Assembly (NCBI GenBank): GCA_038062775.1
Contig: JBBTWL010000077.1
Span: 1 to 25,952 of the forward strand
Source: Patescibacteria group bacterium
Lineage (GTDB): Bacteria; Patescibacteriota; Minisyncoccia; Phycocordibacterales; JAKFXT01
Direction: 5' to 3'
Length of the DNA stretch: 25,952 nt
Each line of letters opens with the position of its first letter. Position 1 is the stretch's first letter. The notes beneath the pieces were generated by a model. The model did no database searches. It saw only the letters and a list, made by a program, of their open reading frames with translations, and was not told the DNA's origin. Positions 1 through 14,706 of the stretch are shown here, piece after piece. The translations under genes and the position numbers were made by a program.

Positions 1-2
1 TG

Positions 3-551
3 GAAGTGGGTTGCGGTAGTGGGGCCAACCTTTGGGTTATAGCCCGAGAAGGTTTTGACACGTATGGCATAGATATCGCTCCGACCGGGATAAAGCTCTG
101 CCGGCAGATGCTTCAAAGTTATGGCGTTAGTGCAAAAATTAAAGTAGGCAATATGAAAAAATTGGACTTTAGGAATAACTATTTTGACGCTGTTGTTGAT
201 GTGATGTCTCTTGAACACACTGATCTGTTGGGGCACAAAAAAGCTTTTGCGGAAATTTTTAGATGTTTAAAAAAAGGAGGTCGACTTTTCAGTTGGCACT
301 TGGGTGAGGACAGTGTTTCTTTTAAGAAAAGTGGAGGCAATAAAATTGACAAATTAACCGTGGATAATATTCCAAATACGAAGGTTCCTTATTACAACAA
401 TGGTATAACATGTTTCCTGACCACGAAGGTTGCCAGAAAAATGCTTACCGAAGCTGGTTTCCGCGACGTTGTTATTGAACGGGTAGAGAGAACATATAAA
501 GAAATGACTCAGCAAATAGAATACTTTTCTATCAGTGCCAGTCGTCCGTAA
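3..551 (+). CDS. Class I SAM-dependent methyltransferase, 5'-truncated by the window edge
   Basis: The frame is open from base 3 (GAA GTG GGT TGC GGT AGT GGG = EVGCGSG, SAM motif I). Followed by GIDI, GNMKKLDF, FDAVVD and LKKGG. The GTG at 6 in the ORF track is internal to motif I, so the true start is upstream of the window. Confidence 0.85.
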   Translation, partial: EVGCGSGANLWVIAREGFDTYGIDIAPTGIKLCRQMLQSYGVSAKIKVGNMKKLDFRNNYFDAVVDVMSLEHTDLLGHKKAFAEIFRCLKKGGRLFSWHLGEDSVSFKKSGGNKIDKLTVDNIPNTKVPYYNNGITCFLTTKVARKMLTEAGFRDVVIERVERTYKEMTQQIEYFSISASRP

Positions 552-591
552 AATTAAATTTTAAATGCACAATTTCACTTTAGGCGAGACT

Positions 592-620
592 TTGACATCC
601 TTTTAAAATAGGGCTAAGGT
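592..620 (+). promoter_or_regulatory. Sigma70-type promoter upstream of pseB
   Basis: TTGACA (592-597), 17-bp spacer, TAAGGT (615-620), in the intergenic gap before pseB. Confidence 0.65.
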
Positions 621-701
621 ATAAAACCACCTTAAATTACCGGGTTATTTAGACGGTCTTGTAAGAAGAGGAAAAGAGGTTATTCGCACCAAGTAACAAA
701 T

Positions 702-1736
702 ATGCCAAAATCACTGCCCCAGAATATGAATAAAATTGATTTTCTTAAAAATAAAACTGTGCTGATTACTGGTGGCACGGGCTCTTTCGGTAAGAACTTT
801 TCCCAATACTTACTTCTAAATTCTGAGATCAAAAAACTCATCATTTTTAGTCGGGATGAATTTAAGCAGTCGCAAATGCGCACCCTGCTTTCTGATGACG
901 AACGTCTGCGTTTTTTTATTGGGGATGTTCGCGATTTGCCACGGCTAGAACGCGCTTTCAGTGGAGTGGATATTGTCGTGCATGCCGCGGCGTTAAAGCA
1001 AATTCCCGCTTTGGAGTACAATCCTTTTGAAGCGGTTAAAACAAATATTTTTGGCAGTCAGAATGTCATTGATGCCGCCATAGACAGAGGAGTCAAAAAA
1101 GTTGTTTTGATTTCAACTGACAAAGCCGCACAGCCATCAAATTTGTATGGCTCAACAAAGTTGTGCGCGGAAAAATTATTTATAAGTGGCAATTCCTACA
1201 CTTCCGGGAAAACACTCTTTAGTTGTGTGCGCTATGGCAATGTTGTTGGCAGTCGGGGGAGCATTGTTGAAATATTATTAAAAGCAAAGAATCATAATTC
1301 CGTAAACATCACACACGAAGAGATGACCAGATTTTGGATCAATCTTGATCAAAGTTTCAAGTTGGTGTTGTTTGCCCTTGAGGCAATGTCGGGCGGTGAA
1401 ATATTCGTGCCAAAAATTCCAAGTATGAAAATAGTTGATCTTTTTAAAGCAGTCGCGCCTAAGGCTAAGCATAAAATAACCGGAATAAGGCCGGGGGAAA
1501 AATTACACGAGGTTCTCATCACTAAAGAAGAAGCTCGCCACACCATTGAGTTGGAGGATTATTTTGTCATTTTGCCAGAGCACGAGGAGGTTTTTAATGG
1601 CGGGGTCAATCATGTCAAAATTTTAGCTTCCGGTAAAAAACTGCCCAGAGATTTTATTTATTCTAGCGACACGAATACCGTTTGGCTTTCTAAGGGTGAG
1701 TTTGGCAGGATGGCGAAAACTATTCAATCATTATGA
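702..1736 (+). CDS. pseB: UDP-N-acetylglucosamine 4,6-dehydratase (inverting), PseB type
   Basis: TGGTGSFG Rossmann motif, FSRDEFKQ, HAAALKQ, STDKA, YGSTK (YxxxK), RYGNVVGSRGS, MTRFWI, GIRPGEKLHE. An alternative start is ATG 726. Confidence 0.92.
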   Translation: MPKSLPQNMNKIDFLKNKTVLITGGTGSFGKNFSQYLLLNSEIKKLIIFSRDEFKQSQMRTLLSDDERLRFFIGDVRDLPRLERAFSGVDIVVHAAALKQIPALEYNPFEAVKTNIFGSQNVIDAAIDRGVKKVVLISTDKAAQPSNLYGSTKLCAEKLFISGNSYTSGKTLFSCVRYGNVVGSRGSIVEILLKAKNHNSVNITHEEMTRFWINLDQSFKLVLFALEAMSGGEIFVPKIPSMKIVDLFKAVAPKAKHKITGIRPGEKLHEVLITKEEARHTIELEDYFVILPEHEEVFNGGVNHVKILASGKKLPRDFIYSSDTNTVWLSKGEFGRMAKTIQSL

Positions 1737-2872
1737 TTCCCTATGGGCGACAGCACATCACTTCAGAGGATATAGAAGCGGTGGTGGCAGTGCTCAAGTC
1801 CGATTTTTTGACACAGGGACCAAAAGTCAAAGAGTTTGAAGAATCTATCGCTAAATATTGTGACGCGAAATACGCTGTTGCTTTTTCTTCCGGCACGGCA
1901 GCGCTCCACGGGGCTTACTACGCGGCAGGCATAGGGAAGGGGGATGAGGTGATTACCACTCCACTTACTTTTGTCGCTACCGCCAACATGGTGGTGGCAG
2001 TGGGGGCAAAACCTATTTTTGCCGATATTGATTCCATGACTGGGAACCTTGATCCGAAAAAGGCGGAAGGAAAAATAACAAAAAAAACAAAAGCCATAGT
2101 TGTTGTTGATTATACCGGGTTGCCGGCAGATCTCGAGGCATTTAAAAAAATTTGTAAAAAAAGAAAACTCGTCTTTATTGAGGATGCGGCACAGGCACTT
2201 GGAGCCTCATATGGCAAAAAAAAGATCGGGGCTATTGCTGACATGACCATGTTCAGTTTTCACCCGGTAAAGTCCATCACCACAGGCGAGGGCGGCATTA
2301 TTGTTACTAACAGCAAAAAATACTTCGAAAAATTGGTTCTCTTCCGGAGTCATGGCATAACGAAAGATAAAAAAAATCTTTTGCATAAAAATCGCGAAGC
2401 ATGGTATCACGAAATGCATGACCTTGGTTTTAACTACCGCATAACAGACATACAAGCTGCGCTCGGCATAAGTCAAATGAGGAAACTCGATGTTTTTATT
2501 GAAAAAAGGAAGGCAATTGCCATGCGGTATCACGAAGCATTAGGCAACATAAAGCGATTTATTTTGCCAAAAGAAATTTCAGGTCGAAAATCAAGTTGGC
2601 ATCTGTACGTGATTCGGATTGTTCCGGAAGAAAAGCATCTTCGAGACGTTATTTTCGGGAAACTTCATAAAGCGGGTATTGGGGCACAGGTGCATTACAT
2701 ACCAGCGTATCATCACCCGTACTATGAATCGCTCGGTTACAAAAAAGGGCTTTGTCCGAATGCTGAAATTTTTTCAGAAACAGCGATTTCTATCCCGATT
2801 TTCCCGTCACTTTCTTTGGCAGAGCAGAGGAAAATTGTTCAGCATGTAAAGAGAGTAAGCCCAAATATATAA
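1733..2872 (+). CDS. pseC: UDP-4-amino-4,6-dideoxy-N-acetyl-altrosamine transaminase (DegT/DnrJ family), PseC type
   Basis: MIPYGRQ N-terminus, FLTQGPKV, SSGTAALH, EDAAQALG, FSFHPVKSITTGEGG (PLP lysine), GFNYRITDIQAALG. ATGA overlap with pseB. Confidence 0.92.
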   Translation: MIPYGRQHITSEDIEAVVAVLKSDFLTQGPKVKEFEESIAKYCDAKYAVAFSSGTAALHGAYYAAGIGKGDEVITTPLTFVATANMVVAVGAKPIFADIDSMTGNLDPKKAEGKITKKTKAIVVVDYTGLPADLEAFKKICKKRKLVFIEDAAQALGASYGKKKIGAIADMTMFSFHPVKSITTGEGGIIVTNSKKYFEKLVLFRSHGITKDKKNLLHKNREAWYHEMHDLGFNYRITDIQAALGISQMRKLDVFIEKRKAIAMRYHEALGNIKRFILPKEISGRKSSWHLYVIRIVPEEKHLRDVIFGKLHKAGIGAQVHYIPAYHHPYYESLGYKKGLCPNAEIFSETAISIPIFPSLSLAEQRKIVQHVKRVSPNI

Positions 2873-2882
2873 TTTTTTACAT

Positions 2883-4274
2883 ATGCCTGAACAGTTTGAA
2901 AAAATTAGAACAGAAAAAATCGGTTTTCGAGCAGATGAAATCTCTTTTATCAAAAAGAATAGCAATGAAATACTCGGTATTCTTGATGACCCTGAAGAGA
3001 GAGAAGCGGTAAAAAGAATTTCGGAAGAAACACTCTTTCCGGACGACGACGTATGGCAAAAGATGGGAAGAGGCATTCTCGAACGATTTGAGACAAAGAT
3101 TTTTGAGTTTGAAAAAAAAGAAGCGGATAAGAACGCGAAACGTGTTTTGGTAACCTCGGACAATCCCGGCTCTTTCGGCGCAATCAAAAACATTATTCGG
3201 GCACTTGAAAATGATTCACGTTGTAAAGGAATTGTGGCCCTGGTTTCCGGAGTTGCTGGCAAACAATTCACAGGAGAATTCCCAATATTCAAAAAAATAC
3301 ACGAGGAGAGAACGGTTCTTGGCGATATCATCGAGGTTTCAAAAAATGAACCAATAGATGTTGCTCTGGCATCGGTGAGTGTCAAAAATGGCCCCGAAGG
3401 CCTGGTTCTTTTTGGTGCCAAAAGTAATTTGGGTGTTTCCAAAACATTTTTTCTTTTTGAAGGATACGGCACGCCTGGAGGAACTTTTTTATTGGGGAAT
3501 AACGAAAGAATGGAAAGCATTGATGGGATTTTCTGCAACGATGAGTTTGCTAAAAAGATATTGGGACAACGAATGCCGGAGTATCCGCAAGAGAAGATAC
3601 ATATTTGCGGAGTCCTCTCATCTGAAGGGTTTGAACTCGAAAAAGCAGAATCGTATCGTGAAGAAACGCGGAGAAAACTTGGCATTGATAGCAATGCTTT
3701 TGTTGTTTTATACCTCGGCGATCTTTTTTCTGACGGTAAGGATGAGGGTTTCCTTGATCCGGATATAGACATCAAAACACTTGAAAAAACCATTCTGGCC
3801 GTTTCCCAATTTTCCCATAACAATGTCGGGGGAGTAGTTATTATTGTGCGCCCGCATCCCCGCGACCCGCAAAAAGAGAATCTCCTTGCTATTGGTGAAA
3901 AGATTGCATTGCCCGAAAATCTTTCAATCAGGAAAGGCGCCTCGCCACTTTCCTTCAATGGCGTGGCGTACGCCTCTGATGTTATAGTAAGCATCCAAGG
4001 CACCGAAAACTTTTTTGCCCCGCTTCGCGGGAAACCAAGCGTTTTTTTGGCGTATAATGATCTCGGGCTTGGGGGAGACGCGCTTCGGCAAGCATATGAC
4101 GAAGCGCTGATTGAAGAAATACGACAGATTCGTGGCATTTCAATCGCTTCTTCCTCGGAAGCGCTCACAGGCATTCTCGAAAAGGTTTCCAAGGAACCGC
4201 TCGTAGGTACGAAGTTAGATACAAAACAGATGCACAGTGCCACAGGCGCTCTTATCGATATCATCTTGGTGTAA
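2883..4274 (+). CDS. Orphan protein with GT-B-like features; candidate nonulosonate/glycosyl transferase
   Basis: 463-aa ORF tightly packed between pseC and a methyltransferase. RVLVTSDNPGS strand-loop, VIIVRPHPRD (HP motif), ASDVIVSIQGT. The CDS is well supported; the function is inferred. Confidence 0.5.
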   Translation: MPEQFEKIRTEKIGFRADEISFIKKNSNEILGILDDPEEREAVKRISEETLFPDDDVWQKMGRGILERFETKIFEFEKKEADKNAKRVLVTSDNPGSFGAIKNIIRALENDSRCKGIVALVSGVAGKQFTGEFPIFKKIHEERTVLGDIIEVSKNEPIDVALASVSVKNGPEGLVLFGAKSNLGVSKTFFLFEGYGTPGGTFLLGNNERMESIDGIFCNDEFAKKILGQRMPEYPQEKIHICGVLSSEGFELEKAESYREETRRKLGIDSNAFVVLYLGDLFSDGKDEGFLDPDIDIKTLEKTILAVSQFSHNNVGGVVIIVRPHPRDPQKENLLAIGEKIALPENLSIRKGASPLSFNGVAYASDVIVSIQGTENFFAPLRGKPSVFLAYNDLGLGGDALRQAYDEALIEEIRQIRGISIASSSEALTGILEKVSKEPLVGTKLDTKQMHSATGALIDIILV

Positions 4275-4931
4275 ATGAAAAAAAACAAAAAAACACAAGA
4301 TGCTCTTTTTTTGAAAAACGAAGGGGATCAGTGGTTCAAAAGAAACGAAAAAGCGCTGGGTAAAGCTAAATTTGAACCGGTCTCATATCTTCTTGACCTT
4401 TACTCACTGCGACCCAAAAGTATTATTGACATCGGATGCAGTGACGGTTGGCGGTTAGAGAGACTCCGAAAAAAATACGGGGCGCACTGTGTTGGCGTTG
4501 ATGCTTCGAAGTTGGCAATTAGAAATGGCCAAAAAAAATACCCTAAGCTTGATCTCAAAAAAAGCTCGGTCTCCGATATTCACATAAAAGATTTAAAATT
4601 TGATTTGGCAATTATTATTTTTGTTTTTCACTGGATATCACGGGAAACACTTATGCAGTCACTTTCAGAGATAGATAGAATGATTAAGCCCGGGGGGTAC
4701 TTGATAATAGGAGATTTTGCCCCGGATGCTCCAACAAAAAATAAATATCACCACTTGCCGAAAGATGATGTTTGGACCTATAAAGATTTTTATCCGGAAA
4801 TGTTTACCAAGACAGGAGCGTATTACGAAGTGGCTCGATTTACTAACGGATATCCACACTTAACCTTTACAGCAGACGCTCCCGCCGAAAATCGTGCCGT
4901 ATTTTGTCTGCTGAGAAAAAACACCAATTAA
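4275..4931 (+). CDS. Class I SAM-dependent methyltransferase
   Basis: IIDIGCSDG, GVDAS, FDLAI, IKPGGYLIIGDF. Start abuts the upstream TAA (TAAATG). Confidence 0.85.
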   Translation: MKKNKKTQDALFLKNEGDQWFKRNEKALGKAKFEPVSYLLDLYSLRPKSIIDIGCSDGWRLERLRKKYGAHCVGVDASKLAIRNGQKKYPKLDLKKSSVSDIHIKDLKFDLAIIIFVFHWISRETLMQSLSEIDRMIKPGGYLIIGDFAPDAPTKNKYHHLPKDDVWTYKDFYPEMFTKTGAYYEVARFTNGYPHLTFTADAPAENRAVFCLLRKNTN

Positions 4932-4979
4932 TTAATGACGACATACCCGAAAGTGTATTGAAAGAAAAAAATAGAAAAA

Positions 4980-6305
4980 ATGAAGAAAAAAAGTGTAAAA
5001 AAAGGACAAGCGCTATGGGAAAAAGCCAAAAAGCTTATTCCTGGTGGCAATCAACTTCTCTCCAAACGCTCGGAGATGTTTTTGCCGGGACAATGGCCCG
5101 CCTATTACTCCAAAGCCAAGGGGTGCGAAGTGTGGGATCTCGATGGCAAGCATTACTTCGATATGGGGAGAATGGCGGTGGGAAGCTGTCTGCTTGGCTA
5201 TGCTGATCCGGACGTGAATTCGGCGGTCAAAGATGCGGTGGATCGCGGTTCGATGTCAACACTGAATGTGCCAGAAGAAGTAGAGCTTGCCGAACTGTTA
5301 TGCAAGATACACCCATGGGCGCACATGGCGCGCTTCGCGCGCGGCGGGGGGGAAGCGATGGCTATCGCAGTGCGCATTGCGCGGGCATATACCGACCGCG
5401 ACATCATCGCCTTTTGCGGTTATCACGGTTGGGCCGACTGGTATCTGGCGACGAATCTCGGCACGACCGATGGGCTCAAGGAGCACTTACTCGCCGGGCT
5501 TGAGGCGAAGGGTGTGCCGAGAGGATTGCGCGGTAGTATTTTGCCTTTCCGCTACAATCATCTTGAAGAGCTCGAAGCGATTGTGAAGCATGCTGGCAAA
5601 CGACTCGCGGCGATTGTTATGGAACCGCTCCATGGTGAAGAACCAAAAGATAATTTTCTTAAAAAGATTCGTGCGATTGCCGACAAAACTGGTGCCGTAC
5701 TTATTTTCGATGAAGTATCGATTGGCTGGAAGCTCACCTACGGTGGCGCGCACCTTATTTATAAAGTCAATCCGGACATTGCGGTATTCAGCAAGGCGAT
5801 GAGCAACGGCTTCCCGATGGCGGCGATTATTGGCAAACACAATGTGATGCAAGCGGCGCAAAATACTTTCATATCGAGTACCTACTGGACCGATCGTACC
5901 GGCCCCGTGGCGGCACTCGCGACGCTCAAAAAGATGAAAAAGATGAATGTACCGAAGCGCATAGCCGAAGCAGCGGCACAGATGCGCGCAGGCTGGGCCA
6001 GCACGGCAAAAAAACACGGACTAAAAATCAAAATTGGCGGAACGATCCCCTATAATTTGTTTTCCTTTCTGTATGATGACGCGCAGGCGCTGAAGACTCT
6101 TTTTACGCAAGAAATGCTTGAGCGCGGGTTCCTTGCTTCGACCGAATTCAATCCGTCCTGCGCTCATACTCCTACCCATATCAAACGCTATGTCAAAACA
6201 CTCGACAGCGTGTTCGCTGAAATCCGCAAAGCGCTCGACACGGATTCGGTGCGCCAGCGTCTCAAGGGCCCCATCGCGCACTTGCACTTTGAACGCCTTA
6301 ATTGA
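4980..6305 (+). CDS. Class III PLP aminotransferase (glutamate-1-semialdehyde aminomutase-like, KdnA-like subgroup)
   Basis: KAKGCEVWDLDGKHYFD, LLGYADPDV, CGYHGW, AAIVMEP, LIFDEV, FSKAMSNGFPMAA (PLP lysine), ISSTYW. Cluster context argues against true HemL. Confidence 0.85.
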   Translation: MKKKSVKKGQALWEKAKKLIPGGNQLLSKRSEMFLPGQWPAYYSKAKGCEVWDLDGKHYFDMGRMAVGSCLLGYADPDVNSAVKDAVDRGSMSTLNVPEEVELAELLCKIHPWAHMARFARGGGEAMAIAVRIARAYTDRDIIAFCGYHGWADWYLATNLGTTDGLKEHLLAGLEAKGVPRGLRGSILPFRYNHLEELEAIVKHAGKRLAAIVMEPLHGEEPKDNFLKKIRAIADKTGAVLIFDEVSIGWKLTYGGAHLIYKVNPDIAVFSKAMSNGFPMAAIIGKHNVMQAAQNTFISSTYWTDRTGPVAALATLKKMKKMNVPKRIAEAAAQMRAGWASTAKKHGLKIKIGGTIPYNLFSFLYDDAQALKTLFTQEMLERGFLASTEFNPSCAHTPTHIKRYVKTLDSVFAEIRKALDTDSVRQRLKGPIAHLHFERLN

Positions 6306-6352
6306 TTTCTAGGGTATAAAAAAATAGATATGGCATACACACGTGTCTGAAT

Positions 6353-6382
6353 AAAAAATTCCTCCGCGGGTGAGGCGGAGGA
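6353..6382 (-). terminator. Intrinsic terminator of the EamA-like gene
   Basis: 8-bp stem TCCTCCGC (6360-6367) / GCGGAGGA (6375-6382) with a 7-nt loop. On the minus strand it is followed by A then T6 (6358-6353), just after the TGA at 6389. Confidence 0.75.
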
Positions 6383-6388
6383 GGGGAT

Positions 6389-7276
6389 TCACATCACAAA
6401 ACCTACAACGACGAAGAAGGAGCCGAGGATACCGAGGCAGAGATAGCACCACTCTGCGAAACCATAGTCTTTTTTCTCTCCAAAACCGATGAGGCCAATA
6501 AGCACGGGAAACACTATTTCGCTTACCAAGAATATCGGTTGAACAACGAGAAGAGGCGCGAGGATAAGCGCCCAATAGTTAAGTCCAAGCGCAGTCAAGA
6601 TGACGCATCCCAGACCAACCGAGAGCGTAACATCTCGTCTGCTTATGACCGAGCGCTCCTTGCGCCACTTCATGCGAATGATGATGATAGCCGCGAGCAG
6701 TGCTCCGAAATACCAACCAGCAATGAAGGTGCTCGGAGCAACCTGCTCTAGTGCCATAAGACGAGTACAAAAGATAGCCACACCCCAGATAACACTGTAG
6801 CCCGCGATCCATGCATACAGCGCCAGAGGATGAGCTCCGTTTGTGCTCGTCTCCTTAGTTTTTTGACGATAATCGCCGTATGAGAACAAGGCTACTGCCG
6901 TAAACGAAAACATGATGCCGAGAGTTATCGGCGTGTTGAGCAGTCGTCCCTCGTCCAAGAAGTAGTACGCAAGAGTCATGCCGATAAGGTCATCTCCCGG
7001 CGTGAAAAGAGAGGTCTTCGAGAGCGATAGTTCGATGGCCCGCCACTGGCAATAGGCGCCGAAGCCATTTATGAAACCGACCCCCACGGTAATGAGCAGA
7101 TTCGTGTCAAACGACAGTCCGAACACCAGCACGCCAAGCACAGAGAGCAACGCCGCACTTGCGAATTGGAGCATGAAACGCTCTTCTCGTCCGACCCCTG
7201 TCGCGGCCTTCTTTATCATCCATGGGGCAATGATGTGCCCCACGAATATTCGTAGTACCACCGGTATGAGCCACAT
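6389..7276 (-). CDS. Multi-pass membrane protein, probable DMT/EamA-family transporter
   Basis: 295 aa with about 10 hydrophobic segments in two similar halves, SLSKTSL and GLIGFGEK-type DMT features, GGAGG 8 nt before the ATG. Confidence 0.65.
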   Translation of the reverse strand: MWLIPVVLRIFVGHIIAPWMIKKAATGVGREERFMLQFASAALLSVLGVLVFGLSFDTNLLITVGVGFINGFGAYCQWRAIELSLSKTSLFTPGDDLIGMTLAYYFLDEGRLLNTPITLGIMFSFTAVALFSYGDYRQKTKETSTNGAHPLALYAWIAGYSVIWGVAIFCTRLMALEQVAPSTFIAGWYFGALLAAIIIIRMKWRKERSVISRRDVTLSVGLGCVILTALGLNYWALILAPLLVVQPIFLVSEIVFPVLIGLIGFGEKKDYGFAEWCYLCLGILGSFFVVVGFVM

Positions 7277-7321
7277 AAACTATCCCTCCGAATGTAAGTT
7301 AATCAGTCCGTTCCGTGTGAA

Positions 7322-7350
7322 AGAATAGCATTATTGATTAATTTTGTCAA
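7322..7350 (-). promoter_or_regulatory. Sigma70-type promoter for the EamA-like gene
   Basis: Minus strand TTGACA (7350-7345), 17 bp ending in TGC, TATTCT (7327-7322): consensus -35 plus extended -10. Confidence 0.7.
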
Positions 7351-7372
7351 TGAATGTGATAAATGCTACGAT
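7344..7372 (+). promoter_or_regulatory. Sigma70-type promoter for spsF and downstream genes, probably giving a leaderless mRNA
   Basis: TTGTCA (7344-7349), 17 bp ending in TGC, TACGAT (7367-7372). ATG 7380 lies 7 nt after the -10 box. Confidence 0.6.
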
Positions 7373-7379
7373 TCGAGGT

Positions 7380-8153
7380 ATGAAAATAGTAGCGATCATC
7401 CAAGCACGCACTGGCTCAGCGCGTTTGCCGAACAAGGTCCTGCGGCCGATTTTAGGAAGGCCGATGCTCGTACACATGATTGATCGGGTACAAAAGTCTA
7501 AAATACTCGATATGATTATTGTTGCGACAACTGACAAGATAGTAGATGATGCAATTGCACAACTCGCACAGGAATGTGGCGTTAGGTGTTTCCGTGGGGA
7601 TGAAAATGACGTGCTCGATCGATTTTATAAAGCGGCTAAAGAAGCTGATGCCAATGTTGTGGTGCGGCTCACTGGGGACTGTGTACTCCACGATTCTCTC
7701 GTGGTAGACGAAGTAGTTGAGCATTTTTTGACTTATACACTCGAGTATACACATGCTCCTGCAAATTATCCTGAAGGGCTTGATACTGAAGTGTTTTCGT
7801 TTAAAGCACTTGAGCGAGCGTGGAAGGAAGGGAAATTGCCCTCAGAGCGCGAGCATGTGACATTGTATATCCGCAATCATCCGGAAATATTTCATGTTGA
7901 TGAAATGTGGAGAAATGGAGAACAGGATTATTCCACTATGCATTGGTCAGTGGATACTGAACAAGACTTTGATTTTGTGACAAAGATATTCGAGCAACTG
8001 TATCCCATAACCCCAAGTTTTAGTAAGGACGATGTCCTTGCATTACTGGCACAGCGTCCGGAACTTTTGGAAATAAACAAAGGTGGCACGGGATATGAAG
8101 GTTTGGCAAAGTCTTTGAGAGAGGATAAAGAATTTAAAAAACGTTCTCTATGA
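7380..8153 (+). CDS. spsF: SpsF-type sugar cytidylyltransferase (CMP-nonulosonate synthetase family)
   Basis: MKIVAIIQARTGSARLPNKVL, FRGDENDVLDRF, VVRLTGDC, YPEGLDTEVF, REHVTLYIRNHP, WSVDTEQD. Start moved from 7344 to ATG 7380, where the family motif begins. Confidence 0.8.
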   Translation: MKIVAIIQARTGSARLPNKVLRPILGRPMLVHMIDRVQKSKILDMIIVATTDKIVDDAIAQLAQECGVRCFRGDENDVLDRFYKAAKEADANVVVRLTGDCVLHDSLVVDEVVEHFLTYTLEYTHAPANYPEGLDTEVFSFKALERAWKEGKLPSEREHVTLYIRNHPEIFHVDEMWRNGEQDYSTMHWSVDTEQDFDFVTKIFEQLYPITPSFSKDDVLALLAQRPELLEINKGGTGYEGLAKSLREDKEFKKRSL

Positions 8154-9076
8154 TCGCGAAAAAAACAAAACTTGTACTCGGCACGGTTCAACTCGGGATG
8201 AAATACGGCCTTAATAATACCGACGGCCAGCCAACAAAGGAAGAATCTTTCTCGATCTTGGATGCGGCGTTAGCCGCTGGCATTACTACTTTTGATACGG
8301 CATATGGGTATGGCACGGCAGAAGATATTCTTGGAGCATGGATCAGCAATCGTTCCTTGTCAGGCAATGTTCGCATCATTTCCAAGATGAACCCCCATGT
8401 TTTAAATGACTATCCTGATGGGACAAAGGCCACTGATGTTGTGCGGATGGAGCTAGAGAAATCATTGGCACGTCTCCATGTCGAGTCCCTCGACGGGTAC
8501 CTGTTCCACTCGCCTTATTACATCTATCTACGTCACATGGTAGAAGGATTACAGAAAGTTCGAGAGACCGGCATGGTGAAAAACATTGGTGTATCAATCT
8601 ATGATGAAGCCGAAGCTCTGCAGGCGGTTGAGCTCGGTGTCGATTATGTGCAGGTGCCATACAACGTATTTGATGGGCGTTTAGGCAGAACCGAATTTTT
8701 TGAACTCGCTAAGAAAAATAAGGTTACGGTTTTTGCTCGTAGCCCCTTCCTCCAAGGACTGTTACTCATGCAACCGGATCAGCTACCCGCACATCTCGCG
8801 CATCTTCGTCCCCACCTGGAGCGTTTCATTGGAATCGCCAAACGGTATCAGATGTCGCCTGTTGAGGCAGCGCTACGCTTCGTCGATGTGAAATGTCCCG
8901 CAGACTACATCGTCTTCGGCGTCGACACGACCGCACAGCTCAAGGAGGATGTCGGCATCATGGCAGTTCCTTCTTCCACGATTGAGAGTATCTGGATAGC
9001 TGAAATGCGAGAGGTCTTCAAGGACATCAACCATGGAGCCGTTAACCCGAGCTTATGGAGTAAGATAGTGCGATGA
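8150..9076 (+). CDS. Aldo/keto reductase
   Basis: LVLGTVQLGMKYG, FDTAYGYG, IISK, LFHS, IGVSIY, QVPYNVFD, ARSPFLQGLL, with the D-Y-K-H tetrad recognisable. ATGA overlap with spsF. Confidence 0.88.
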   Translation: MIAKKTKLVLGTVQLGMKYGLNNTDGQPTKEESFSILDAALAAGITTFDTAYGYGTAEDILGAWISNRSLSGNVRIISKMNPHVLNDYPDGTKATDVVRMELEKSLARLHVESLDGYLFHSPYYIYLRHMVEGLQKVRETGMVKNIGVSIYDEAEALQAVELGVDYVQVPYNVFDGRLGRTEFFELAKKNKVTVFARSPFLQGLLLMQPDQLPAHLAHLRPHLERFIGIAKRYQMSPVEAALRFVDVKCPADYIVFGVDTTAQLKEDVGIMAVPSSTIESIWIAEMREVFKDINHGAVNPSLWSKIVR

Positions 9077-9768
9077 AGGTATCAATTTTTCAGCCAACGT
9101 ACCTTTCGTGGATCGGTTTCTATAAAGCCATTGAATGGGCTGACACCTTTGTCTTTCTCGATGACGTTCAGTTTGAAAATCACTCTTGGCAAATTCGCAA
9201 TAGAATCAAAATGGCAGAGGGAGAGTTGATGCTCTCCGTGCCTATTGTGAGAAATTTTCCGCAAGACATTAATCAAGTTAAAATAAATTACACTACGAAT
9301 TGGGTTAAAAAACATCTAAAATCAATCGAACTCAATTATTCTAAAGCACCGTGTTCGAGAGAATTTTTTCTTTTACTAAAATCTATCTATCAAGCTCAAC
9401 CCGAGAAATTAGTAGCACTGAATGTCAACCTTATTAAAGGAATATGCAGTTTCTTGGGAATAAAAACTGATTTTCGTTGTTCATCTAAATTGGGGGTTGG
9501 CAACTTAGATAAAAATGAAAAACTTGTTGCCATTTTAAAAAAATTATCTGCCGATCATTTTTTGTATGCGGAGGGAGCATGGGGATACATGGAAAAAGAG
9601 ATAAACTTGTATTATGATAATAACATTCAATTAACACCGCTTACCTTCGTGCATCCCGTGTATACTCAACTCAATGGTACTTTTATACCGTACCTCTCAA
9701 TCATTGATATGATTTTTAACTGCGGGAAGGATAAAACGGTAGCGATACTTAAGAACATACAATTATAA
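9073..9768 (+). CDS. WbqC-family protein (putative aminoacyl transferase for an amino sugar)
   Basis: IFQPTYLSWIGFY, FVFLDDVQF, RNRIK, NYSKAP, HPVYTQL, FIPYLSIIDMIFNCG are typical WbqC-like motifs. ATGA overlap. Confidence 0.85.
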   Translation: MKVSIFQPTYLSWIGFYKAIEWADTFVFLDDVQFENHSWQIRNRIKMAEGELMLSVPIVRNFPQDINQVKINYTTNWVKKHLKSIELNYSKAPCSREFFLLLKSIYQAQPEKLVALNVNLIKGICSFLGIKTDFRCSSKLGVGNLDKNEKLVAILKKLSADHFLYAEGAWGYMEKEINLYYDNNIQLTPLTFVHPVYTQLNGTFIPYLSIIDMIFNCGKDKTVAILKNIQL

Positions 9769-9785
9769 ACCCAACTATAAACCCA
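9764..9785 (+). repeat. 10-bp direct repeat forming the WbqC / methyltransferase spacer
   Basis: TATAAACCCA at 9764-9773 and 9776-9785. The first copy contains the TAA stop; the second ends on the A of the next ATG. Confidence 0.8.
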
Positions 9786-10687
9786 TGCATACCGATCCTT
9801 TGTACCAAGATAGTATGTATAAAATCATACGAGACGCTACTCACGGTTACTATCGCCTTTCCCCTGTACCAACGCGGGACGAGCTGAAGCACTATTACGA
9901 TAAAGAATTTTACAATACCAACTATAACAAGCAAATAAACGATAGTTCCAAAAAAGTACAGGAAGAGGAGTCAGAATTTTTTGCTTTGCAACACGAAGAT
10001 GTGGTAGAAATACTGCACAAGGAAGCGCCGGGAAAGAGACTTATTGATATCGGTTGCGGATATGGTACCTTTTTAAAATTCTGTCAAAAACGGGGATTTG
10101 AAGTTTTTGGCCTTGATCCTTCATCGGACGCGGTGCACAGTACCCAGAAAATGGGTATTGAAGCGGTTGAAGCCGATATTGAAGATCTGAAAGATATCGT
10201 GCATAAGAAATACGATACTGCCGTGATGCTCAACGTGTTTGAGCATTTGCGTGAACCCTATACGATACTCAAAGATATACGGGAACATATATTAGAAGAT
10301 GATGGGGTATTGGTTATTCGAGTGCCGAATGAGTTCAATGCTTTACAGACTATTGCTAATCAGGCCTATAATTTAAAATCTTGGTGGGTGAGCGCCCCGC
10401 AACATATAAATTATTTTACCATTCCCCATCTCGTACGGTTACTACAGAATAATGGGTTTAACGTATTTTTAAAGGAAGCAACCTTTCCGCTCGAGATGTT
10501 TATCTTATTCGGGGAGCAGTATGTGGGTAATCCTGAAGTCGGGAAAATAATTCATAACAAAAGAGTACTATTTGATAAGACACTTCACCAATACGATAAC
10601 GCTTTCAAGCGCCAGCTCTACAGATCCTTTGCTGAATTGGGGATTGGCAGGGAAATAGTCGTATACGCTAAAAAAACGACTCATTGA
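9785..10687 (+). CDS. Class I SAM-dependent methyltransferase
   Basis: LIDIGCGYGTF, GLDPS, YDTAVMLNVFEHLREP, LVIRVPNEF, PQHINYF. Confidence 0.85.
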   Translation: MHTDPLYQDSMYKIIRDATHGYYRLSPVPTRDELKHYYDKEFYNTNYNKQINDSSKKVQEEESEFFALQHEDVVEILHKEAPGKRLIDIGCGYGTFLKFCQKRGFEVFGLDPSSDAVHSTQKMGIEAVEADIEDLKDIVHKKYDTAVMLNVFEHLREPYTILKDIREHILEDDGVLVIRVPNEFNALQTIANQAYNLKSWWVSAPQHINYFTIPHLVRLLQNNGFNVFLKEATFPLEMFILFGEQYVGNPEVGKIIHNKRVLFDKTLHQYDNAFKRQLYRSFAELGIGREIVVYAKKTTH

Positions 10688-10709
10688 TTTTAACCATATT
10701 TTAACCATA
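10688..10709 (+). repeat. 11-bp tandem repeat forming the spacer before the dioxygenase
   Basis: TTTTAACCATA twice (10688-10698, 10699-10709), ending on the A of the ATG. Confidence 0.8.
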
Positions 10710-11539
10710 TGTTGACTCTGGATAACGCCAAAAAAGAATTAGGAGAAAAAGGATATGTAATTTTAGAAAATATTCTTAGCCCGTTGGAATGCGAGCATTT
10801 TAAAGAGCTGCTAGAACACGATTACAAAAAATATTCCTCTCGGTACGTCGGTAGCAAAAAGAAATCAGAACACGGGCTTGAAGATACGAGCATCGTGAAG
10901 GTGGTGTATAACCTGCATAATAAACATTTAGATTATTTTAAGCTGTTTGACCATCCTGCCGTCCTACCCATTCTTGATTTGATGCTTAAGGATGGGTCGT
11001 ATCAAAATGCGGAGCCGTACCACCTGTTAAACACATCAGCTCGCTGTCCGTTGCCACATGTCCCGGCCCAACAACTACATTTAGACAGCAATTTACCGGG
11101 GGGCGATTACCAACTCATAATGGTGGTGTTATGGATGCTGGACGATTTTACACCCGAGAACGGGGCTACCAGAGTGGTTCCGGGCAGTCACAAATTTTTA
11201 GGATACCCGGCTACGGCCAAAACATACCCCGAAGAAATCTCCGTGATTGCTCCGCGCGGATCGGTACTTATCTATAACGGTAGTTTGTGGCATGGAAACG
11301 GTCTAAAAACTATTACCGGAGATCGTTGGGGGGCTATACTCGCGTATGGTCGCTGGTTCATAAAACCTTCTTTTGATTTTATGCAAAACATGCCCCATGG
11401 TATCTACGATAAGTTAACCGATCCTCAAAAGGATTTGCTTGGCTATCGCAGTAATCCGCCTAAAGACGAATTTACACGGTTACGGAGAAGGAGTGAGGAT
11501 TTTGAAAAGCCGGAAGAGTATGAGTTGCCAAGCGCATAA
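10709..11539 (+). CDS. Phytanoyl-CoA dioxygenase (PhyH) family Fe(II)/2-oxoglutarate dioxygenase
   Basis: GYVILENIL, QQLHLD (HxD), WMLDDFTPENGATRVVPGSH, APRGSVLIYNGSLWHG (distal His), followed by Arg. Confidence 0.85.
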   Translation: MLTLDNAKKELGEKGYVILENILSPLECEHFKELLEHDYKKYSSRYVGSKKKSEHGLEDTSIVKVVYNLHNKHLDYFKLFDHPAVLPILDLMLKDGSYQNAEPYHLLNTSARCPLPHVPAQQLHLDSNLPGGDYQLIMVVLWMLDDFTPENGATRVVPGSHKFLGYPATAKTYPEEISVIAPRGSVLIYNGSLWHGNGLKTITGDRWGAILAYGRWFIKPSFDFMQNMPHGIYDKLTDPQKDLLGYRSNPPKDEFTRLRRRSEDFEKPEEYELPSA

Positions 11540-11573
11540 AATGAAGATATAACAGATACCATCTATAGTATCC

Positions 11574-12629
11574 ATGTCGCTACAAGTCAAAATCAATAAA
11601 AAAATAATTGGAGAAAATCAGCCAGTATATATTATCGCTGAAGCGGGAAGCAACCATAATACAAACTTCGGTACGGCTTTAGAGTTAATAGATACTGCCG
11701 TGGCCGCACATGCCGATGCTGTAAAATTTCAGTTGTTTAAAGCTGAAAAGCTGTATCCTAAAAATGCCGGGATAGCAAAGTATCTCGCTAAAGACTATAA
11801 AAATATCCATGACCTCATACGGTCAATGGAAATGCCAGTAGAGTGGTTGCCGAAATTGGTCGCCTATTGCAAAAAGAAAAACATAGAGTTTCTTTGCTCA
11901 CCTTTTGACGAAGAGTCAGCGGATGCTCTTGATACGGTAGGCGTTGCTGCTTTTAAGATAGCCTCAAGCGAATGCAATCACACTAAGTTAATCGAGCATG
12001 TCGCCAAAAAAGGTAAGCCAATTATTTTATCGACGGGTATTTCTTCCTTGGGAGAAATAGAGGAGGCGGTAAACATCATCAGAAAATATCATGACAAAAT
12101 CATCATTATGCATTGTATCGTTAGCTACCCGGCTGAAATAAAAGATACGAATTTGCGATATGTGCAGTATCTTAAAGATGTCTTTCGGTGTCCCTCCGGG
12201 TTGTCGGACCATTCACTCGATCCTCTCGTACTGCCTATAGCCATGACCGCAATTGGCGGAAAAATTATCGAGAAGCATTTCACCTTAGACAAGAAATCGG
12301 CTGGCCCGGATCATAAGTTTGCGATTGAACCAGGGGAGCTTACGGCTATGGTTACCGCAATCAGGCTTACCGAGGCCACGCTTGCTCCTCGGCAGAATAA
12401 GATATTAGAGAGTGAGCAGGAGTTGGTAGAAGTATCTAAACGCGCGATACAGACGACAAAGAATATTAAAAAGGGAGAGACATTAAATACCTCCAATATA
12501 GCTATCTTGAGGCCGGGCAAGAACCTCAAAGGGATAGCACCACGGTTCTATGACGGTATAGTAGGCAAGAAAGTAAATAAAAATATCGAAGAGGGGAGTG
12601 GTGTACGGTGGGATGATCTCCTGAATTAA
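11574..12629 (+). CDS. spsE: NeuB/PseI/SpsE-family nonulosonate synthase with C-terminal SAF domain
   Basis: IIAEAGSNHN, ADAVKFQ, FKIASSE, ILSTG, MHCIVSYP, GLSDHS, IEKHFTLD, DHKF, and C-terminal ILRPG...WDDL. Product stereochemistry cannot be read from sequence. Confidence 0.8.
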   Translation: MSLQVKINKKIIGENQPVYIIAEAGSNHNTNFGTALELIDTAVAAHADAVKFQLFKAEKLYPKNAGIAKYLAKDYKNIHDLIRSMEMPVEWLPKLVAYCKKKNIEFLCSPFDEESADALDTVGVAAFKIASSECNHTKLIEHVAKKGKPIILSTGISSLGEIEEAVNIIRKYHDKIIIMHCIVSYPAEIKDTNLRYVQYLKDVFRCPSGLSDHSLDPLVLPIAMTAIGGKIIEKHFTLDKKSAGPDHKFAIEPGELTAMVTAIRLTEATLAPRQNKILESEQELVEVSKRAIQTTKNIKKGETLNTSNIAILRPGKNLKGIAPRFYDGIVGKKVNKNIEEGSGVRWDDLLN

Positions 12630-12637
12630 TAAAAGGC

Positions 12638-13846
12638 ATGCGTGTTGCATTGTTTGCATTAACGGGTTTTGGGAACAAAGTGCTGGACGCTCTTTTGGCC
12701 GAATCTTGTGAGGTGGGGTTTGTTTTAACGCGTAAAGAAAAAGGACCTTTTCCATATTATGCGGAAAAAAATCTAAGTGAATATGCTGCAGAGAAGAGTA
12801 TAAAAATATATGAATTTGTTGATTGGAATGCGGTAGAAAAAATAATTAAAGATTTTGCACCGCAGTTGCTATTAGTTTCTACATTTCATAAAATTATTCC
12901 TCAAAAAATCATTGATTCGGTGCCACTCGTGGTCAATATGCACCCCTCTCTGTTGCCTCGGTATCGGGGAGCTACTCCTATGGACGCGGTGTTATTCAAT
13001 CAAGAAAAAGAGACTGGGGTAACTGCGCATTACCTCACGAAAGAGTTGGACGCTGGAGATATACTCATTCAGAAAAAAGTTACGATAGCATCGGACGAAA
13101 CCAAGAATACTCTGATGAAGAAATTGGCTACTGCGACGGCTGTGGCAGTATCAGAACTGGTCAGAAAGATACAGATAAAAAAAGTGAGGGGAATGCCCCA
13201 AAACGAAACCGTAGCTACTTATGTTCCGAGATTTAAAAGTGCCATTGTCATTTTTGTACTCGGGGGTGCCCTGAAAAAAAGTAAAAATGGTACCTGGCGA
13301 ACCGCCACACTCCGTGAAAAGGGCGACCAATTCGGAGTAACGGGCGATCGGTTACGAGTAGTAGCGGCAAGCCATTTGTATAAAAGTAATCCGAATGCAT
13401 CTATTATCACAGTAGGGGGCAAAGGCCAACTCCAAAGAGTGCCGGGTGTTCCTCCAATATCACGTGTCATGAAAGAGGAGTTAGTGAAACTGAAAGTCTC
13501 TCCCGACGATATTTTAGAAGAGAATAAATCCGGCAGTACCCATATGCAGTTACAAGAAGTAAAAAGAATTATTACTCGGCATGCCATACGAGAAGCGATC
13601 GTGGTTTCTAATCAGTACCATCTCCCTCGGATCAAGGCTTTTATTGAACAGGATGCAGAGTTGAAGAGGATGATGCAGAGCAAACAGTTGCGGTTGCAAT
13701 CGGCAGAAGACGTGCTGGTACAGGCCGATTCTAAGAAATGGAAAGATATGATCAGTCGTACGTATAAAAGCAAATCAATGAAGGACCGAATTAAGATGGA
13801 AAAGAGAGGGGCGGATAGTATAAAACGTGGGACATACAAGCTTTGA
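12638..13846 (+). CDS. N10-formyl-THF-dependent formyltransferase fused to a DUF218 (YdcF/ElyC-like) domain
   Basis: N half: NMHPSLLPRYRGATP and TGVTAHYLTKELDAGDI (N/H/D catalytic set), ending ATYVPR. From about 13241: IFVLGG, TVGGKG, ILEENKSGST, IVVSNQYHLPR, which are DUF218-like. Confidence 0.75.
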   Translation: MRVALFALTGFGNKVLDALLAESCEVGFVLTRKEKGPFPYYAEKNLSEYAAEKSIKIYEFVDWNAVEKIIKDFAPQLLLVSTFHKIIPQKIIDSVPLVVNMHPSLLPRYRGATPMDAVLFNQEKETGVTAHYLTKELDAGDILIQKKVTIASDETKNTLMKKLATATAVAVSELVRKIQIKKVRGMPQNETVATYVPRFKSAIVIFVLGGALKKSKNGTWRTATLREKGDQFGVTGDRLRVVAASHLYKSNPNASIITVGGKGQLQRVPGVPPISRVMKEELVKLKVSPDDILEENKSGSTHMQLQEVKRIITRHAIREAIVVSNQYHLPRIKAFIEQDAELKRMMQSKQLRLQSAEDVLVQADSKKWKDMISRTYKSKSMKDRIKMEKRGADSIKRGTYKL

Positions 13847-13887
13847 TTGATAAAATATAATGAACGTGTTTAAATATTTTTTACCGC

Positions 13888-14685: not shown

Positions 14686-14706
14686 ACGAGGAGACGTTTT
14701 AGTAAT

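Follow-up and report, generated by a model that had tools for sequence, protein, structure and literature searches.

Three neighbouring genes, encoding a class III aminotransferase (AT3), an SpsF-type cytidylyltransferase, and an aldo/keto reductase (AKR), form, as comparison across genomes shows, a single functional unit that belongs to nonulosonate synthesis. Tentatively, the trio may be a conserved tailoring module of pseudaminic-acid-type pathways, in which late oxidation and transamination would aminate the nine-carbon sugar. A preliminary description had read these genes as an extra module beside PseB and PseC, with KdnA as precedent. A unit of AT3, an NAD(P) oxidoreductase, and a cytidylyltransferase beyond PseB and PseC is borne out by synteny, by repeated independent fusions, and by presence beside complete canonical pathways. 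The precedent fails, as KdnA is a DegT-family and not a class III enzyme.

The window, i.e., the whole stretch of DNA that was analysed (25,952 nucleotides), comes from an ultra-small groundwater bacterium, in which AKR, SpsF, and AT3 are an add-on to the genes for a surface sugar resembling sialic acid (Table 1). The genome is 637 kb and 98% complete. PseB catalyzes the first step of the pathway to which the trio is attached, PseC its ordinary amination, and the NeuB/PseI-type synthase the condensation step. Profile matches confirm the positions given earlier for the three genes, and PseB and PseC, upstream of them as described, both exceed their equivalog cut-offs. The synthase scores 291 bits with TIGR03586 and 329 bits with TIGR03569, each under the model's own cut-off. 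Neither PseH nor PseG is found in the host genome.

Table 1. Features of the nonulosonate cluster in the window
Feature	Position	Strand	Evidence
PseB, UDP-GlcNAc 4,6-dehydratase (inverting)	702..1736	+	TIGR03589 451.5 bits (cut-off 407.75); Polysacc_synt_2
PseC, DegT-family C4 aminotransferase	1733..2872	+	TIGR03588 492.7 bits (cut-off 423.5)
Class III aminotransferase (AT3), 441 aa	4980..6305	+	PF00202 (Aminotran_3) 149.8 bits
Terminator-like hairpin and T-run	6360..6382	-	Pattern scan only
Multi-pass membrane protein, 295 aa	6389..7276	-	ORF and translation
Promoter-like site	7344..7372		Pattern scan only
SpsF-type cytidylyltransferase	7344 (or 7380)..8153	+	PF02348 (CTP_transf_3) 127.2 bits
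Aldo/keto reductase (AKR)	8150..9076	+	PF00248 (Aldo_ket_red) 132.2 bits
NeuB/PseI-type nonulosonate synthase	11574..12629	+	PF03102 271.6 bits; SAF domain

The trio does lie in the interval first described, but the minus-strand gene within it had been overlooked. By eye, about ten membrane segments are predicted in its product, which has no Pfam or NCBIfam match and no homologue in 80 related loci. The gene is missing from the trio of the nearest relatives; in the closest of them (L113), nothing separates AT3, SpsF, and AKR. Because the membrane-protein gene is inserted, the host trio is divided into two transcription units. AT3 is the final gene of the upstream unit; its stop converges with that of the membrane-protein gene, and the hairpin lies between the two. 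SpsF and AKR overlap by 4 bases, as do AKR and WbqC, so these three genes are probably translationally coupled.

From alignment with homologues, ATG 7380 is the probable start of the cytidylyltransferase. This enzyme scores 45.8 bits against the PseF equivalog model (cut-off 205.7) and was rejected as PseF. It matches PDB 6oew at 1e-36, has the conserved QAR..S.RLP.K and DC motifs, and, KdsB aside, is the sole candidate in the genome for a CMP-nonulosonate synthetase, which it probably is. The catalytic tetrad of the AKR is intact (D49, Y52, K79, and H120), with Y52 assigned by alignment and Y54 as an alternative.

AT3 is a GSA-aminomutase-like class III protein with the family motif GYHGWxDW. 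It keeps the FDEV aspartate (D244) and the Schiff-base lysine (K272). HemL is the nearest characterised family and has the same fold and PLP lysine; HemL structures and models (about 1e-42 to 1e-78) are the best named matches of AT3. As judged from the sequence, however, AT3 is not HemL. It falls below all HemL cut-offs (212.6 bits with TIGR00713, cut-off 527.3), and in the alignment the HemL hallmarks are changed (YHGH to YHGW, GGG to SNG, and a 10-residue deletion). Clustering with true HemL, together with GSA mutase activity, had been named beforehand as a result that would refute the module. In the tree AT3 falls outside true HemL: its clade is separate from the HemL proteins of genomes holding both (SH-aLRT 98), and the two families are sister clades with support of 100 for the pair. 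HemB is not found in the 98% complete genome, nor is the tetrapyrrole pathway. Since the neighbourhood of AT3 is also consistently one of nonulosonate genes, the chance that AT3 is an ordinary HemL placed in the cluster by accident appears to be virtually nil.

The preliminary description placed AT3 in a KdnA subgroup by an N-terminal string, which is indeed present in AT3. KdnA (PDB 5k8b), however, is a DegT-family enzyme that matches PseC of the window at 2e-51, so this motif cannot mark a KdnA subgroup. KdnA is also absent among the 60 best of 101 PDB matches to AT3. In Shewanella oneidensis, KdnB and KdnA make 8-amino-Kdo by a similar logic, i.e., a dehydrogenase oxidises an ulosonic acid to a carbonyl that a PLP aminotransferase then aminates. 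Rather than an AKR, KdnB is an alcohol dehydrogenase of the iron type (PMC5125639), and it oxidises the primary alcohol at C8 of a sugar with eight carbons. The likeness of AT3 and AKR to this pair would thus be mechanistic at most, without homology. The PDB relatives of AT3 at 1e-30 to 1e-37 include the gentamicin GenB C-6' enzymes, FumI, and ForI. These show that class III enzymes can aminate sugar carbonyls after a separate oxidation, although they are farther from AT3 than HemL is, have aminoglycoside or polyketide scaffolds as substrates, and show no link to a cytidylyltransferase.

The AT3 family is found in at least 598 species, archaea included. Among the 80 best AT3 loci, 52 have a nonulosonate context (PseB/PseC/NeuB clusters), and each of these 52 includes a cytidylyltransferase no more than 7 kb away. 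An oxidoreductase is found in 36 of the 52, either an AKR (25) or a GFO/IDH/MocA enzyme (11) and never both; the other 16, some of which are truncated contigs, have neither gene. The recurrent order is PseB-PseC-[AKR or GFO]-SpsF-AT3-PseG/PseH-NeuB. Fusions are frequent. The 150 best AT3 cluster representatives include 41 SpsF-AT3 and three AKR-AT3 fusions, as well as GFO-AT3, GFO-SpsF-AT3, GNAT-AT3, and Amidohydro_2-AT3. The last belongs to a sister subfamily whose loci either look catabolic, containing DHDPS/HpcH aldolases and a transporter, or have a BNR sialidase-like protein next to the fusion. SpsF-like proteins are fused to AKR, GFO, AT3, AT3 and GNAT, or AKR and AT3, and SpsF fusions arise at several separate positions in the AT3 tree. 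In one case AKR, SpsF, and AT3 are joined in a single 985-aa protein. Because the set recurs and is fused across phyla, the trio is on comparative grounds not a chance neighbourhood.

The trio is an add-on, since in some clusters it accompanies a full canonical pathway with PseF and PseG. True PseF stands beside the trio in two loci (L041, 280 bits; L035, 277 bits; cut-off 205.7), and clusters from bacteria other than the ultra-small ones retain a true PseG. SpsF-type and PseF-type enzymes are otherwise largely mutually exclusive in the same slot; in L058 a PseF-type enzyme fills it, while most clusters, including that of the host, have the SpsF type and no other CMP-nonulosonate synthetase. 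Compared with the canonical CMP-pseudaminic pathway of Helicobacter pylori and Campylobacter jejuni (PseB-PseC-PseH-PseG-PseI-PseF), the host shares the PseB and PseC equivalogs, has a NeuB/PseI-type synthase and a cytidylyltransferase, and shows the same overall gene order. It lacks PseH and PseG, however, its cytidylyltransferase is SpsF-type, and AKR and AT3 are extras with no textbook role.

Bacillus subtilis SpsF belongs to the same CTP_transf_3 subfamily as the host enzyme. The sps operon of B. subtilis is not known to include an aminotransferase or AKR as partner. When spsF is mutated in this species, legionaminic acid is still made but cannot be transferred (PMC7439481), placing SpsF between these two steps. 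This phenotype, together with the ability of PseF-type enzymes to fill the slot, points to the SpsF-type enzyme as the CMP-sugar synthetase of the pathway. AT3 would then act late, next to the synthetase, and its substrate would be the nine-carbon sugar, either free or as the CMP ester. The oxidoreductase (AKR in the host, a GFO/IDH/MocA enzyme in other lineages) would convert a free hydroxyl to a ketone, and AT3 would convert the ketone to an amine, which may later be acylated. Of the candidate hydroxyls, that of the C8 methyl-carbinol would suit a class III enzyme best, with C4 as an alternative. The redox direction, the carbon attacked, and the choice between free sugar and CMP-sugar are all inferred. 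PseC and the oxidoreductase co-occur with an odds ratio of 10-17 (Fisher p 0.001-0.005, shared ancestry uncorrected), which fits the need for a second keto group after PseC has used that made by PseB. The two genes are usually adjacent, and joint inheritance may explain their association.

A GFO/IDH/MocA dehydrogenase, an aminotransferase, and an acetyltransferase form an established route to extra sugar amines (WbpB/WbpE/WbpD and GnnA/GnnB). The same three-step logic is seen in AT3 lineages with a GFO/IDH/MocA partner and a fused GNAT, although the known aminotransferases are DegT-type enzymes acting at C3 of UDP-sugars and AT3 is a class III enzyme tied to a CMP-sugar synthetase. Next to the GNAT-SpsF-AT3 fusions is a second, separate protein of 522 aa with a GNAT domain; no PseG domain scored in it, but it may be a fusion of the PseG-PseH type. 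N-acyltransferase domains thus exceed the canonical need by one. Minimal clusters encode a single N-acyltransferase, so there the new amine would either remain unacylated or depend on an acyltransferase gene outside the cluster. Against tailoring by amination, AKRs in cells usually reduce rather than oxidise, and AT3 and SpsF/AKR of the host are on different transcription units. No triamino nonulosonic acid was found in the literature searched. The island of Aeromonas hydrophila AH-1 contains only pseB, pseC, AKR, pseF, the class III aminotransferase, pseG, and pseI (PMC7874193), and this strain carries a 403-Da pseudaminic-like sugar (oxonium ion m/z 404; PMC4691044). The even m/z implies an odd nitrogen count, whereas Pse5Ac7Ac has two nitrogens. 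The mass equally fits isomers without a third ring-chain amine, e.g., Pse5Ac with a glutamyl group, both being C16H25N3O9.

AT3 and the oxidoreductase could instead invert a centre bearing an amine or a hydroxyl (C7, C8, or C4), giving a pseudaminic stereoisomer with no added nitrogen. C-6' epimerase/aminotransferases and class III racemases are among the PDB relatives of AT3, PLP epimerases such as GenB2 belong to class III, and the single acyltransferase of minimal clusters agrees with inversion. The ela and aci modules of Acinetobacter baumannii, which have oxidoreductases, are proposed to convert legionaminic acid to its C7 and C8 epimers (PMC5595891, PMC9676051). Inversion is nevertheless unlikely. 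Epimerisation of a hydroxyl needs no aminotransferase and that of an amine no oxidoreductase, yet both are kept and fused; the GNAT-AT3 and GNAT-SpsF-AT3 fusions, with another GNAT-domain protein encoded next to them, suggest that an amine is newly made, and the odd nitrogen count in AH-1 is left unexplained. It is quite unlikely that AT3 acts on an N-acyl side chain (e.g., 2-oxoglutaryl to glutamyl) that the oxidoreductase prepares or trims: minimal clusters have no ligase or acyl carrier to install one, and the fusions to the CMP-sugar synthetase and GFO/IDH/MocA dehydrogenases point to the sugar itself. Nonetheless, the sister family of AT3 is glutamate-1-semialdehyde aminomutase, which acts on a C5 amino-aldehyde acid, and the AH-1 mass of 403 equals that of Pse5Ac carrying a glutamyl substituent. 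The flagellin of Clostridium botulinum is known to bear glutamyl-substituted legionaminic acid. PseH is missing in Aeromonas subgroup IA (PMC7874193), which suits a side-chain role.

The same absence, with that in the host genome, would also suit a reverse flow, in which AT3 removes an unacylated amine (e.g., N7) and AKR or GFO reduces the ketone, leaving a 7-hydroxy 9-deoxy nonulosonate. Reduction is the normal AKR direction, and the Amidohydro_2-AT3 subfamily looks catabolic. Such a flow has little to recommend it, however, since it is wasteful when the PseB product is already a directly reducible 4-ketone, PseC is retained, and many trio clusters have PseH; it predicts one nitrogen and not three, also odd, but 128 Da would then be unaccounted for with the minimal island of AH-1. 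Finally, the trio might make a dedicated activated precursor (cf. Campylobacter PtmF/PtmA/PtmE or CDP-alditol pairs) with no tailoring of the nine-carbon sugar. The legionaminic acid precursor branch also consists of an aminotransferase, an oxidoreductase, and a nucleotidyltransferase, reductase-cytidylyltransferase fusions are typical of CDP-ribitol synthesis, and some clusters have both PseF and SpsF. We consider this extremely unlikely, as the two synthetase types largely exclude each other from one slot, most clusters have no other synthetase, the host PseB is a confident UDP-GlcNAc enzyme, and B. subtilis SpsF acts downstream of legionaminic acid synthesis (PMC7439481).

Similar gene sets occur in the polar-flagellin islands of Aeromonas group I (pseB, pseC, AKR, cytidylyltransferase, class III aminotransferase, pseG, and pseI; PMC7874193) and in the LPS locus of Legionella pneumophila Sg6/Sg12 (PMC3694923), and an SpsF-AKR fusion is reported in Vibrio (PMC7371886). 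These hosts are Gram-negative Proteobacteria that keep PseG and target flagellin or LPS. In contrast, the trio described here is found in an ultra-small bacterium without PseG, interrupted by the membrane-protein gene and set among formyl-, methyl-, and WbqC-type tailoring genes. The module has therefore already been described in the Aeromonas, Legionella, and Vibrio papers, in each case with no function assigned, and late amination of the nine-carbon sugar may be that function.

The window comes from an ultra-small bacterium with a 637-kb genome (98% complete), and its closest protein relatives carry the labels Minisyncoccia, Kaiserbacteria, and Parcubacteria. A nonulosonic-acid cluster on the plus strand occupies bases 1-14,700 (see the table below). 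The three genes that the preliminary description had proposed as an extra-amination module for a new ulosonic acid are present at the positions listed: a class III aminotransferase (AT3), an SpsF-type cytidylyltransferase, and an aldo/keto reductase (AKR). PseB and PseC, which it had taken to supply the usual amination of the pathway, lie upstream of this trio, and both belong to their assigned families.

Features of the nonulosonic-acid cluster in the window
Feature	Position	Strand	Remark
Methyltransferase	3-551	+	
PseB	702-1736	+	
PseC	1733-2872	+	
Orphan 463-aa protein	2883-4274	+	
Methyltransferase	4275-4931	+	
AT3, class III aminotransferase	4980-6305	+	PF00202, GYHGWADW motif
Terminator-like hairpin	6360-6382		pattern only
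Multi-pass membrane protein, 295 aa	6389-7276	-	
Promoter-like site	7344-7372		
SpsF-type cytidylyltransferase	7344-8153	+	PF02348
Aldo/keto reductase (AKR)	8150-9076	+	PF00248
WbqC-like	9073-9768	+	
Methyltransferase	9785-10687	+	
PhyH dioxygenase	10709-11539	+	
NeuB	11574-12629	+	
Formyltransferase-DUF218 fusion	12638-13846	+	
Methyltransferase	13888-14685	+	

The SpsF, AKR, and WbqC genes overlap by four bases at each junction, and alignment with homologues suggests that SpsF starts at ATG 7380. AT3 is split from this SpsF-AKR-WbqC run by the hairpin, the promoter-like site, and the membrane gene, which the preliminary description had left out. The membrane protein has no homologue in the 80 related loci examined, nor elsewhere in its own genome. 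Since AT3, SpsF, and AKR are contiguous in the closest relative of the window (locus L113, a single run PseC-AT3-SpsF-AKR-DUF218-GNAT-NeuB), the membrane gene is an insertion here. Between AT3 and SpsF of a Kaiserbacteria locus, another membrane ORF, of 280 aa, is placed and oriented in the same way (L014:11455-12297, minus strand), but no similarity to the window's protein is detectable. GC3 is 0.52-0.60 in AT3, the membrane gene, and AKR, and 0.34-0.46 in SpsF and all flanking genes (genome GC 0.45). This mosaic across 4980-9076 suggests that the region has recently recombined with that of a GC-richer relative.

AT3 is a class III aminotransferase, scoring 149.8 bits with PF00202 against a gathering threshold of 30.5, and its PLP-binding residues, the aspartate D244 and the lysine K272, are kept family-wide. 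It is not a KdnA-type 8-amino-Kdo transaminase. KdnA (PDB 5k8b, 8-amino-3,8-dideoxy-octulosonate transaminase) finds its match in PseC of the window (2e-51) and is therefore a DegT-family enzyme, whereas AT3 matches PF00202 only and not DegT/DnrJ/EryC1. HemL enzymes head the best 60 of the 101 PDB matches of AT3; FumI, ForI, and gentamicin C-6' aminotransferases come next, and 5k8b is not in this set. The KdnA precedent therefore has to be given up, and the N-terminal motif cannot be the sign of a KdnA-like subgroup.

Nor is AT3 a HemL, as its TIGR00713 score is 212.6 bits against an equivalog cut-off of 527.3. True HemL (569-639 bits) is found in four of five genomes with an AT3 relative, and the AT3 relatives of those genomes score 185-200 bits. 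In the maximum-likelihood tree, HemL and the AT3 family are separate sister clades (SH-aLRT 98 each), so that AT3 falls outside true HemL. HemL hallmarks are altered in AT3 (YHGH to YHGW, and GGG after the lysine to SNG), and a 10-residue C-terminal segment of HemL is missing from it in the alignment. For the tetrapyrrole pathway, no match to ALAD/HemB is found in the 98% complete genome.

The SpsF-type enzyme scores 127.2 bits with PF02348 (CTP_transf_3; threshold 22.6). It has the QAR..S.RLP.K and DC motifs with the invariant Q20, A21, R22, R27, P29, K31, D112, and C113. It is not PseF: TIGR03584 gives 45.8 bits over the N-terminal part only, against a cut-off of 205.7 and 277-280 bits for the true PseFs of loci L041 and L035. 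The cytidylyltransferase slot is filled by either type (PseF-type, e.g., in L058), and in B. subtilis the loss of spsF leaves legionaminic acid to accumulate without being transferred (PMC7439481), which together argue that the slot is that of a CMP-sugar synthetase. The other CTP_transf_3 gene of the genome is KdsB in a Kdo cluster, leaving SpsF as the sole candidate. With this and the B. subtilis genetics, SpsF probably forms CMP-nonulosonate from CTP and the free sugar. The AKR scores 132.2 bits with PF00248 (threshold 24) and has an intact Asp-Tyr-Lys-His tetrad; its residues D49, Y52 (by alignment), K79, and H120 correspond to the tetrads of YhdN and a 2,5-DKG reductase.

The textbook pseudaminic and legionaminic acid pathways have six steps. 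A complete canonical CMP-pseudaminic acid pathway (PseB, C, H, G, I, and F) is not found in the window or genome. PseB and PseC are there, the window's synthase scores 291 bits with the PseI model (cut-off 340), PseG has a best match of only 14.6 bits in the genome, and PseH has no match in it. DUF218 occupies the position that PseG has in other lineages, as AKR-DUF218-GNAT-NeuB or NeuB-DUF218 (L113:11012-11650; L059:9524-10120). DUF218-SpsF fusions exist in dozens of ultra-small bacteria, also with NeuB and SpsF or GNAT and SpsF (proteins P0315-P0350), and in the window DUF218 is fused to a formyltransferase. From the PseG slot, these fusions, and the lack of PseG in the genome, DUF218 is a candidate replacement for the UDP-sugar hydrolase. 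The same genome also has a Kdo-type cluster on contig C66 (L008:5959-14027), with a GT9 heptosyl/Kdo-transferase-like gene, KdsA (DAHP_synth_1, 260 bits), KdsB (CTP_transf_3, 163 bits), a HAD phosphatase, and a Wzy_C/TPR O-antigen-ligase-like protein. Ultra-small bacteria of this kind are not known to have LPS.

The three genes of the trio are often fused. An exhaustive profile-free search with AT3 gave 1,553 cluster representatives at E <= 1e-30; the best 150 of them include 41 SpsF-AT3 fusions, three AKR-AT3 fusions, one GFO-SpsF-AT3 triple fusion, and fusions of AT3 with GFO/IDH/MocA, GNAT, or Amidohydro_2. Longer SpsF relatives are fused to AKR, GFO/IDH/MocA, DUF218, NeuB, AT3, or AT3 and GNAT, and in one 985-aa protein AKR, SpsF, and AT3 are all joined. 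SpsF-AT3 fusions are scattered at several separate tree positions and thus arose more than once. Among the 80 best AT3 loci, 52 are in a nonulosonate context (PseB/PseC/NeuB), 12 are linked to Amidohydro_2, and 16 are in other contexts. All 52 nonulosonate loci have a cytidylyltransferase within 7 kb of AT3 (SpsF-type in 46, PseF-type in 8, both in 2), and 36 have an oxidoreductase (AKR in 25, GFO/IDH/MocA in 11, never together). The co-occurrence of aminotransferase, oxidoreductase, and cytidylyltransferase thus holds in 36 of 52 loci, and the three enzymes make up a single functional unit. The recurrent operon is PseB-PseC-[AKR or GFO]-SpsF-AT3-PseG(-PseH)-NeuB. With its GYHGWADW motif, CTP_transf_3, and AKR in a PseB/NeuB cluster, the window carries this module. 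The family motif GYHGWxDW is found in genomes of at least 598 species, which among the matches listed include Patescibacteria, Chloroflexota, Acidobacteriota, Planctomycetota, Verrucomicrobiota, Proteobacteria, Bacteroidota, Firmicutes, Prochlorococcus, and archaea. Module enzymes are 50-88% identical across phyla.

Other genes of the window recur as well. A 462-aa homologue of the orphan 463-aa protein lies directly 3' of AT3 in an unrelated metagenomic genome (L036:11310-12698), and this protein may be a recurring module partner. The formyltransferase, WbqC, methyltransferase, PhyH dioxygenase, and NeuB block (window 9073-13846) is found on another metagenomic contig beside an AKR-AT3 fusion (L011:11923-16138), with the same gene content in almost the same order; this block may constitute another conserved group of tailoring genes. 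A sister AT3 subfamily, fused or adjacent to Amidohydro_2, exists outside biosynthetic clusters (L087:1219-11311, L018:2728-14591, L084, L086, L089, and L090). In Paenibacillus its gene adjoins a 2,587-aa ORF with BNR sialidase-like and SLH domains in the C-terminal part, and in one Anaerolineales genome its neighbours are aldolases of the DHDPS and HpcH types, an SDR, an AKR, and an ABC transporter of the peptide type. This subfamily may represent a breakdown route for such sugars.

One reading takes SpsF as a mere replacement of PseF and the other two genes as unrelated. It is ruled out by the fusions and by clusters that hold PseF plus the trio. True PseF stands alongside the trio in L041 and L035, and true PseG directly follows AT3 in clusters outside the ultra-small bacteria, indicating that the oxidoreductase and AT3 come on top of the six activities of the canonical pathway. 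AT3 was also considered as a stand-in for PseC; loci L055, L059, and L070 have no DegT gene near AT3, and DegT genes exist elsewhere in those genomes. The oxidoreductase tends to be present where PseC is (odds ratio 10-17, p 0.001-0.005), in statistics that are not corrected for shared descent and for genes that are usually adjacent. The predicted complex of AT3 and SpsF scores 0.00, which weighs neither for nor against.

An NAD(P) oxidoreductase and an aminotransferase, sometimes with a GNAT, are the standard means of converting a sugar hydroxyl to an (acyl)amino group. Where an enzyme is fused to the last one of a pathway, its own step most plausibly falls directly before or after that one. 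Free hydroxyls in pseudaminic-type sugars are at C4 and C8 only, and the C8 oxidation product would be a methyl ketone, on which class III enzymes typically act. The module could well add an extra amino group to the nonulosonate, a reading to which we give slightly less than an even chance. The remaining weight is shared by stereo-inversion, side-chain amination, deamination followed by reduction, and precursor supply. Extra amination is favoured by the co-occurrence of PseC and the oxidoreductase and by a GNAT-SpsF-AT3 fusion whose neighbour is a second GNAT-domain protein, of 522 aa and possibly fused in the PseG-PseH manner. Against it, AKRs usually reduce, and minimal clusters have one acyltransferase only.

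The recurrent operon has the same arrangement in Aeromonas group I flagellin islands, where no role is given for it (PMC7874193). A Legionella pneumophila Sg6/12 LPS locus lists a similar gene set (PMC3694923), and a Vibrio cluster carries an SpsF-AKR fusion (PMC7371886). The literature searched has nothing relevant on SpsF with GSA-type and aldo enzymes or on nonulosonic acids of Patescibacteria; a Thaumarchaeota paper mentioning class III aminotransferases is irrelevant to the module. The island of Aeromonas hydrophila AH-1 has only pseB, pseC, AKR, pseF, AT3, pseG, and pseI (PMC7874193), and its flagellin carries a pseudaminic-like sugar of 403 Da without assigned structure (oxonium ion m/z 404; PMC4691044). 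The even m/z implies an odd nitrogen count, a hint in favour of extra amination; the mass also fits isomeric explanations. The present analysis refutes the KdnA and HemL readings, provides a census of fusions that includes all-in-one proteins, shows that AKR and GFO can take each other's place, as can SpsF and PseF, shows the trio to be an add-on to complete pathways, and points to AH-1.

The most far-reaching proposal, which we consider rather unlikely, is that the product would be an undescribed class of nonulosonic acid, a 5,7,8-triamino (or 4-amino) nine-carbon sugar that arises by late oxidation and class III transamination and for which a dedicated SpsF-type CMP synthetase then provides the activation. 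No triamino or triacetamido nonulosonate was found in the literature searched. If true, such a sugar would be widespread in both bacteria and archaea, its hosts ranging from ultra-small groundwater bacteria to Aeromonas, Legionella, and Prochlorococcus. Flagella, capsules, and LPS carry pseudaminic and legionaminic acids, which influence how phages attach and how the immune system recognises the cell. The conservation of the module, its fusions, and its presence in at least 598 species suggest that the product of a sizeable proportion of 'pseudaminic acid' clusters is not Pse5Ac7Ac. Knowing the product would correct many HemL or aldo/keto reductase labels in genomes, account for glycan masses so far unassigned, among them that of the 403-Da sugar from A. 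hydrophila, and provide a new reaction type for class III aminotransferases. It would also show that even bacteria whose genomes have shrunk to 0.6 Mb devote resources to elaborate surface sugars.
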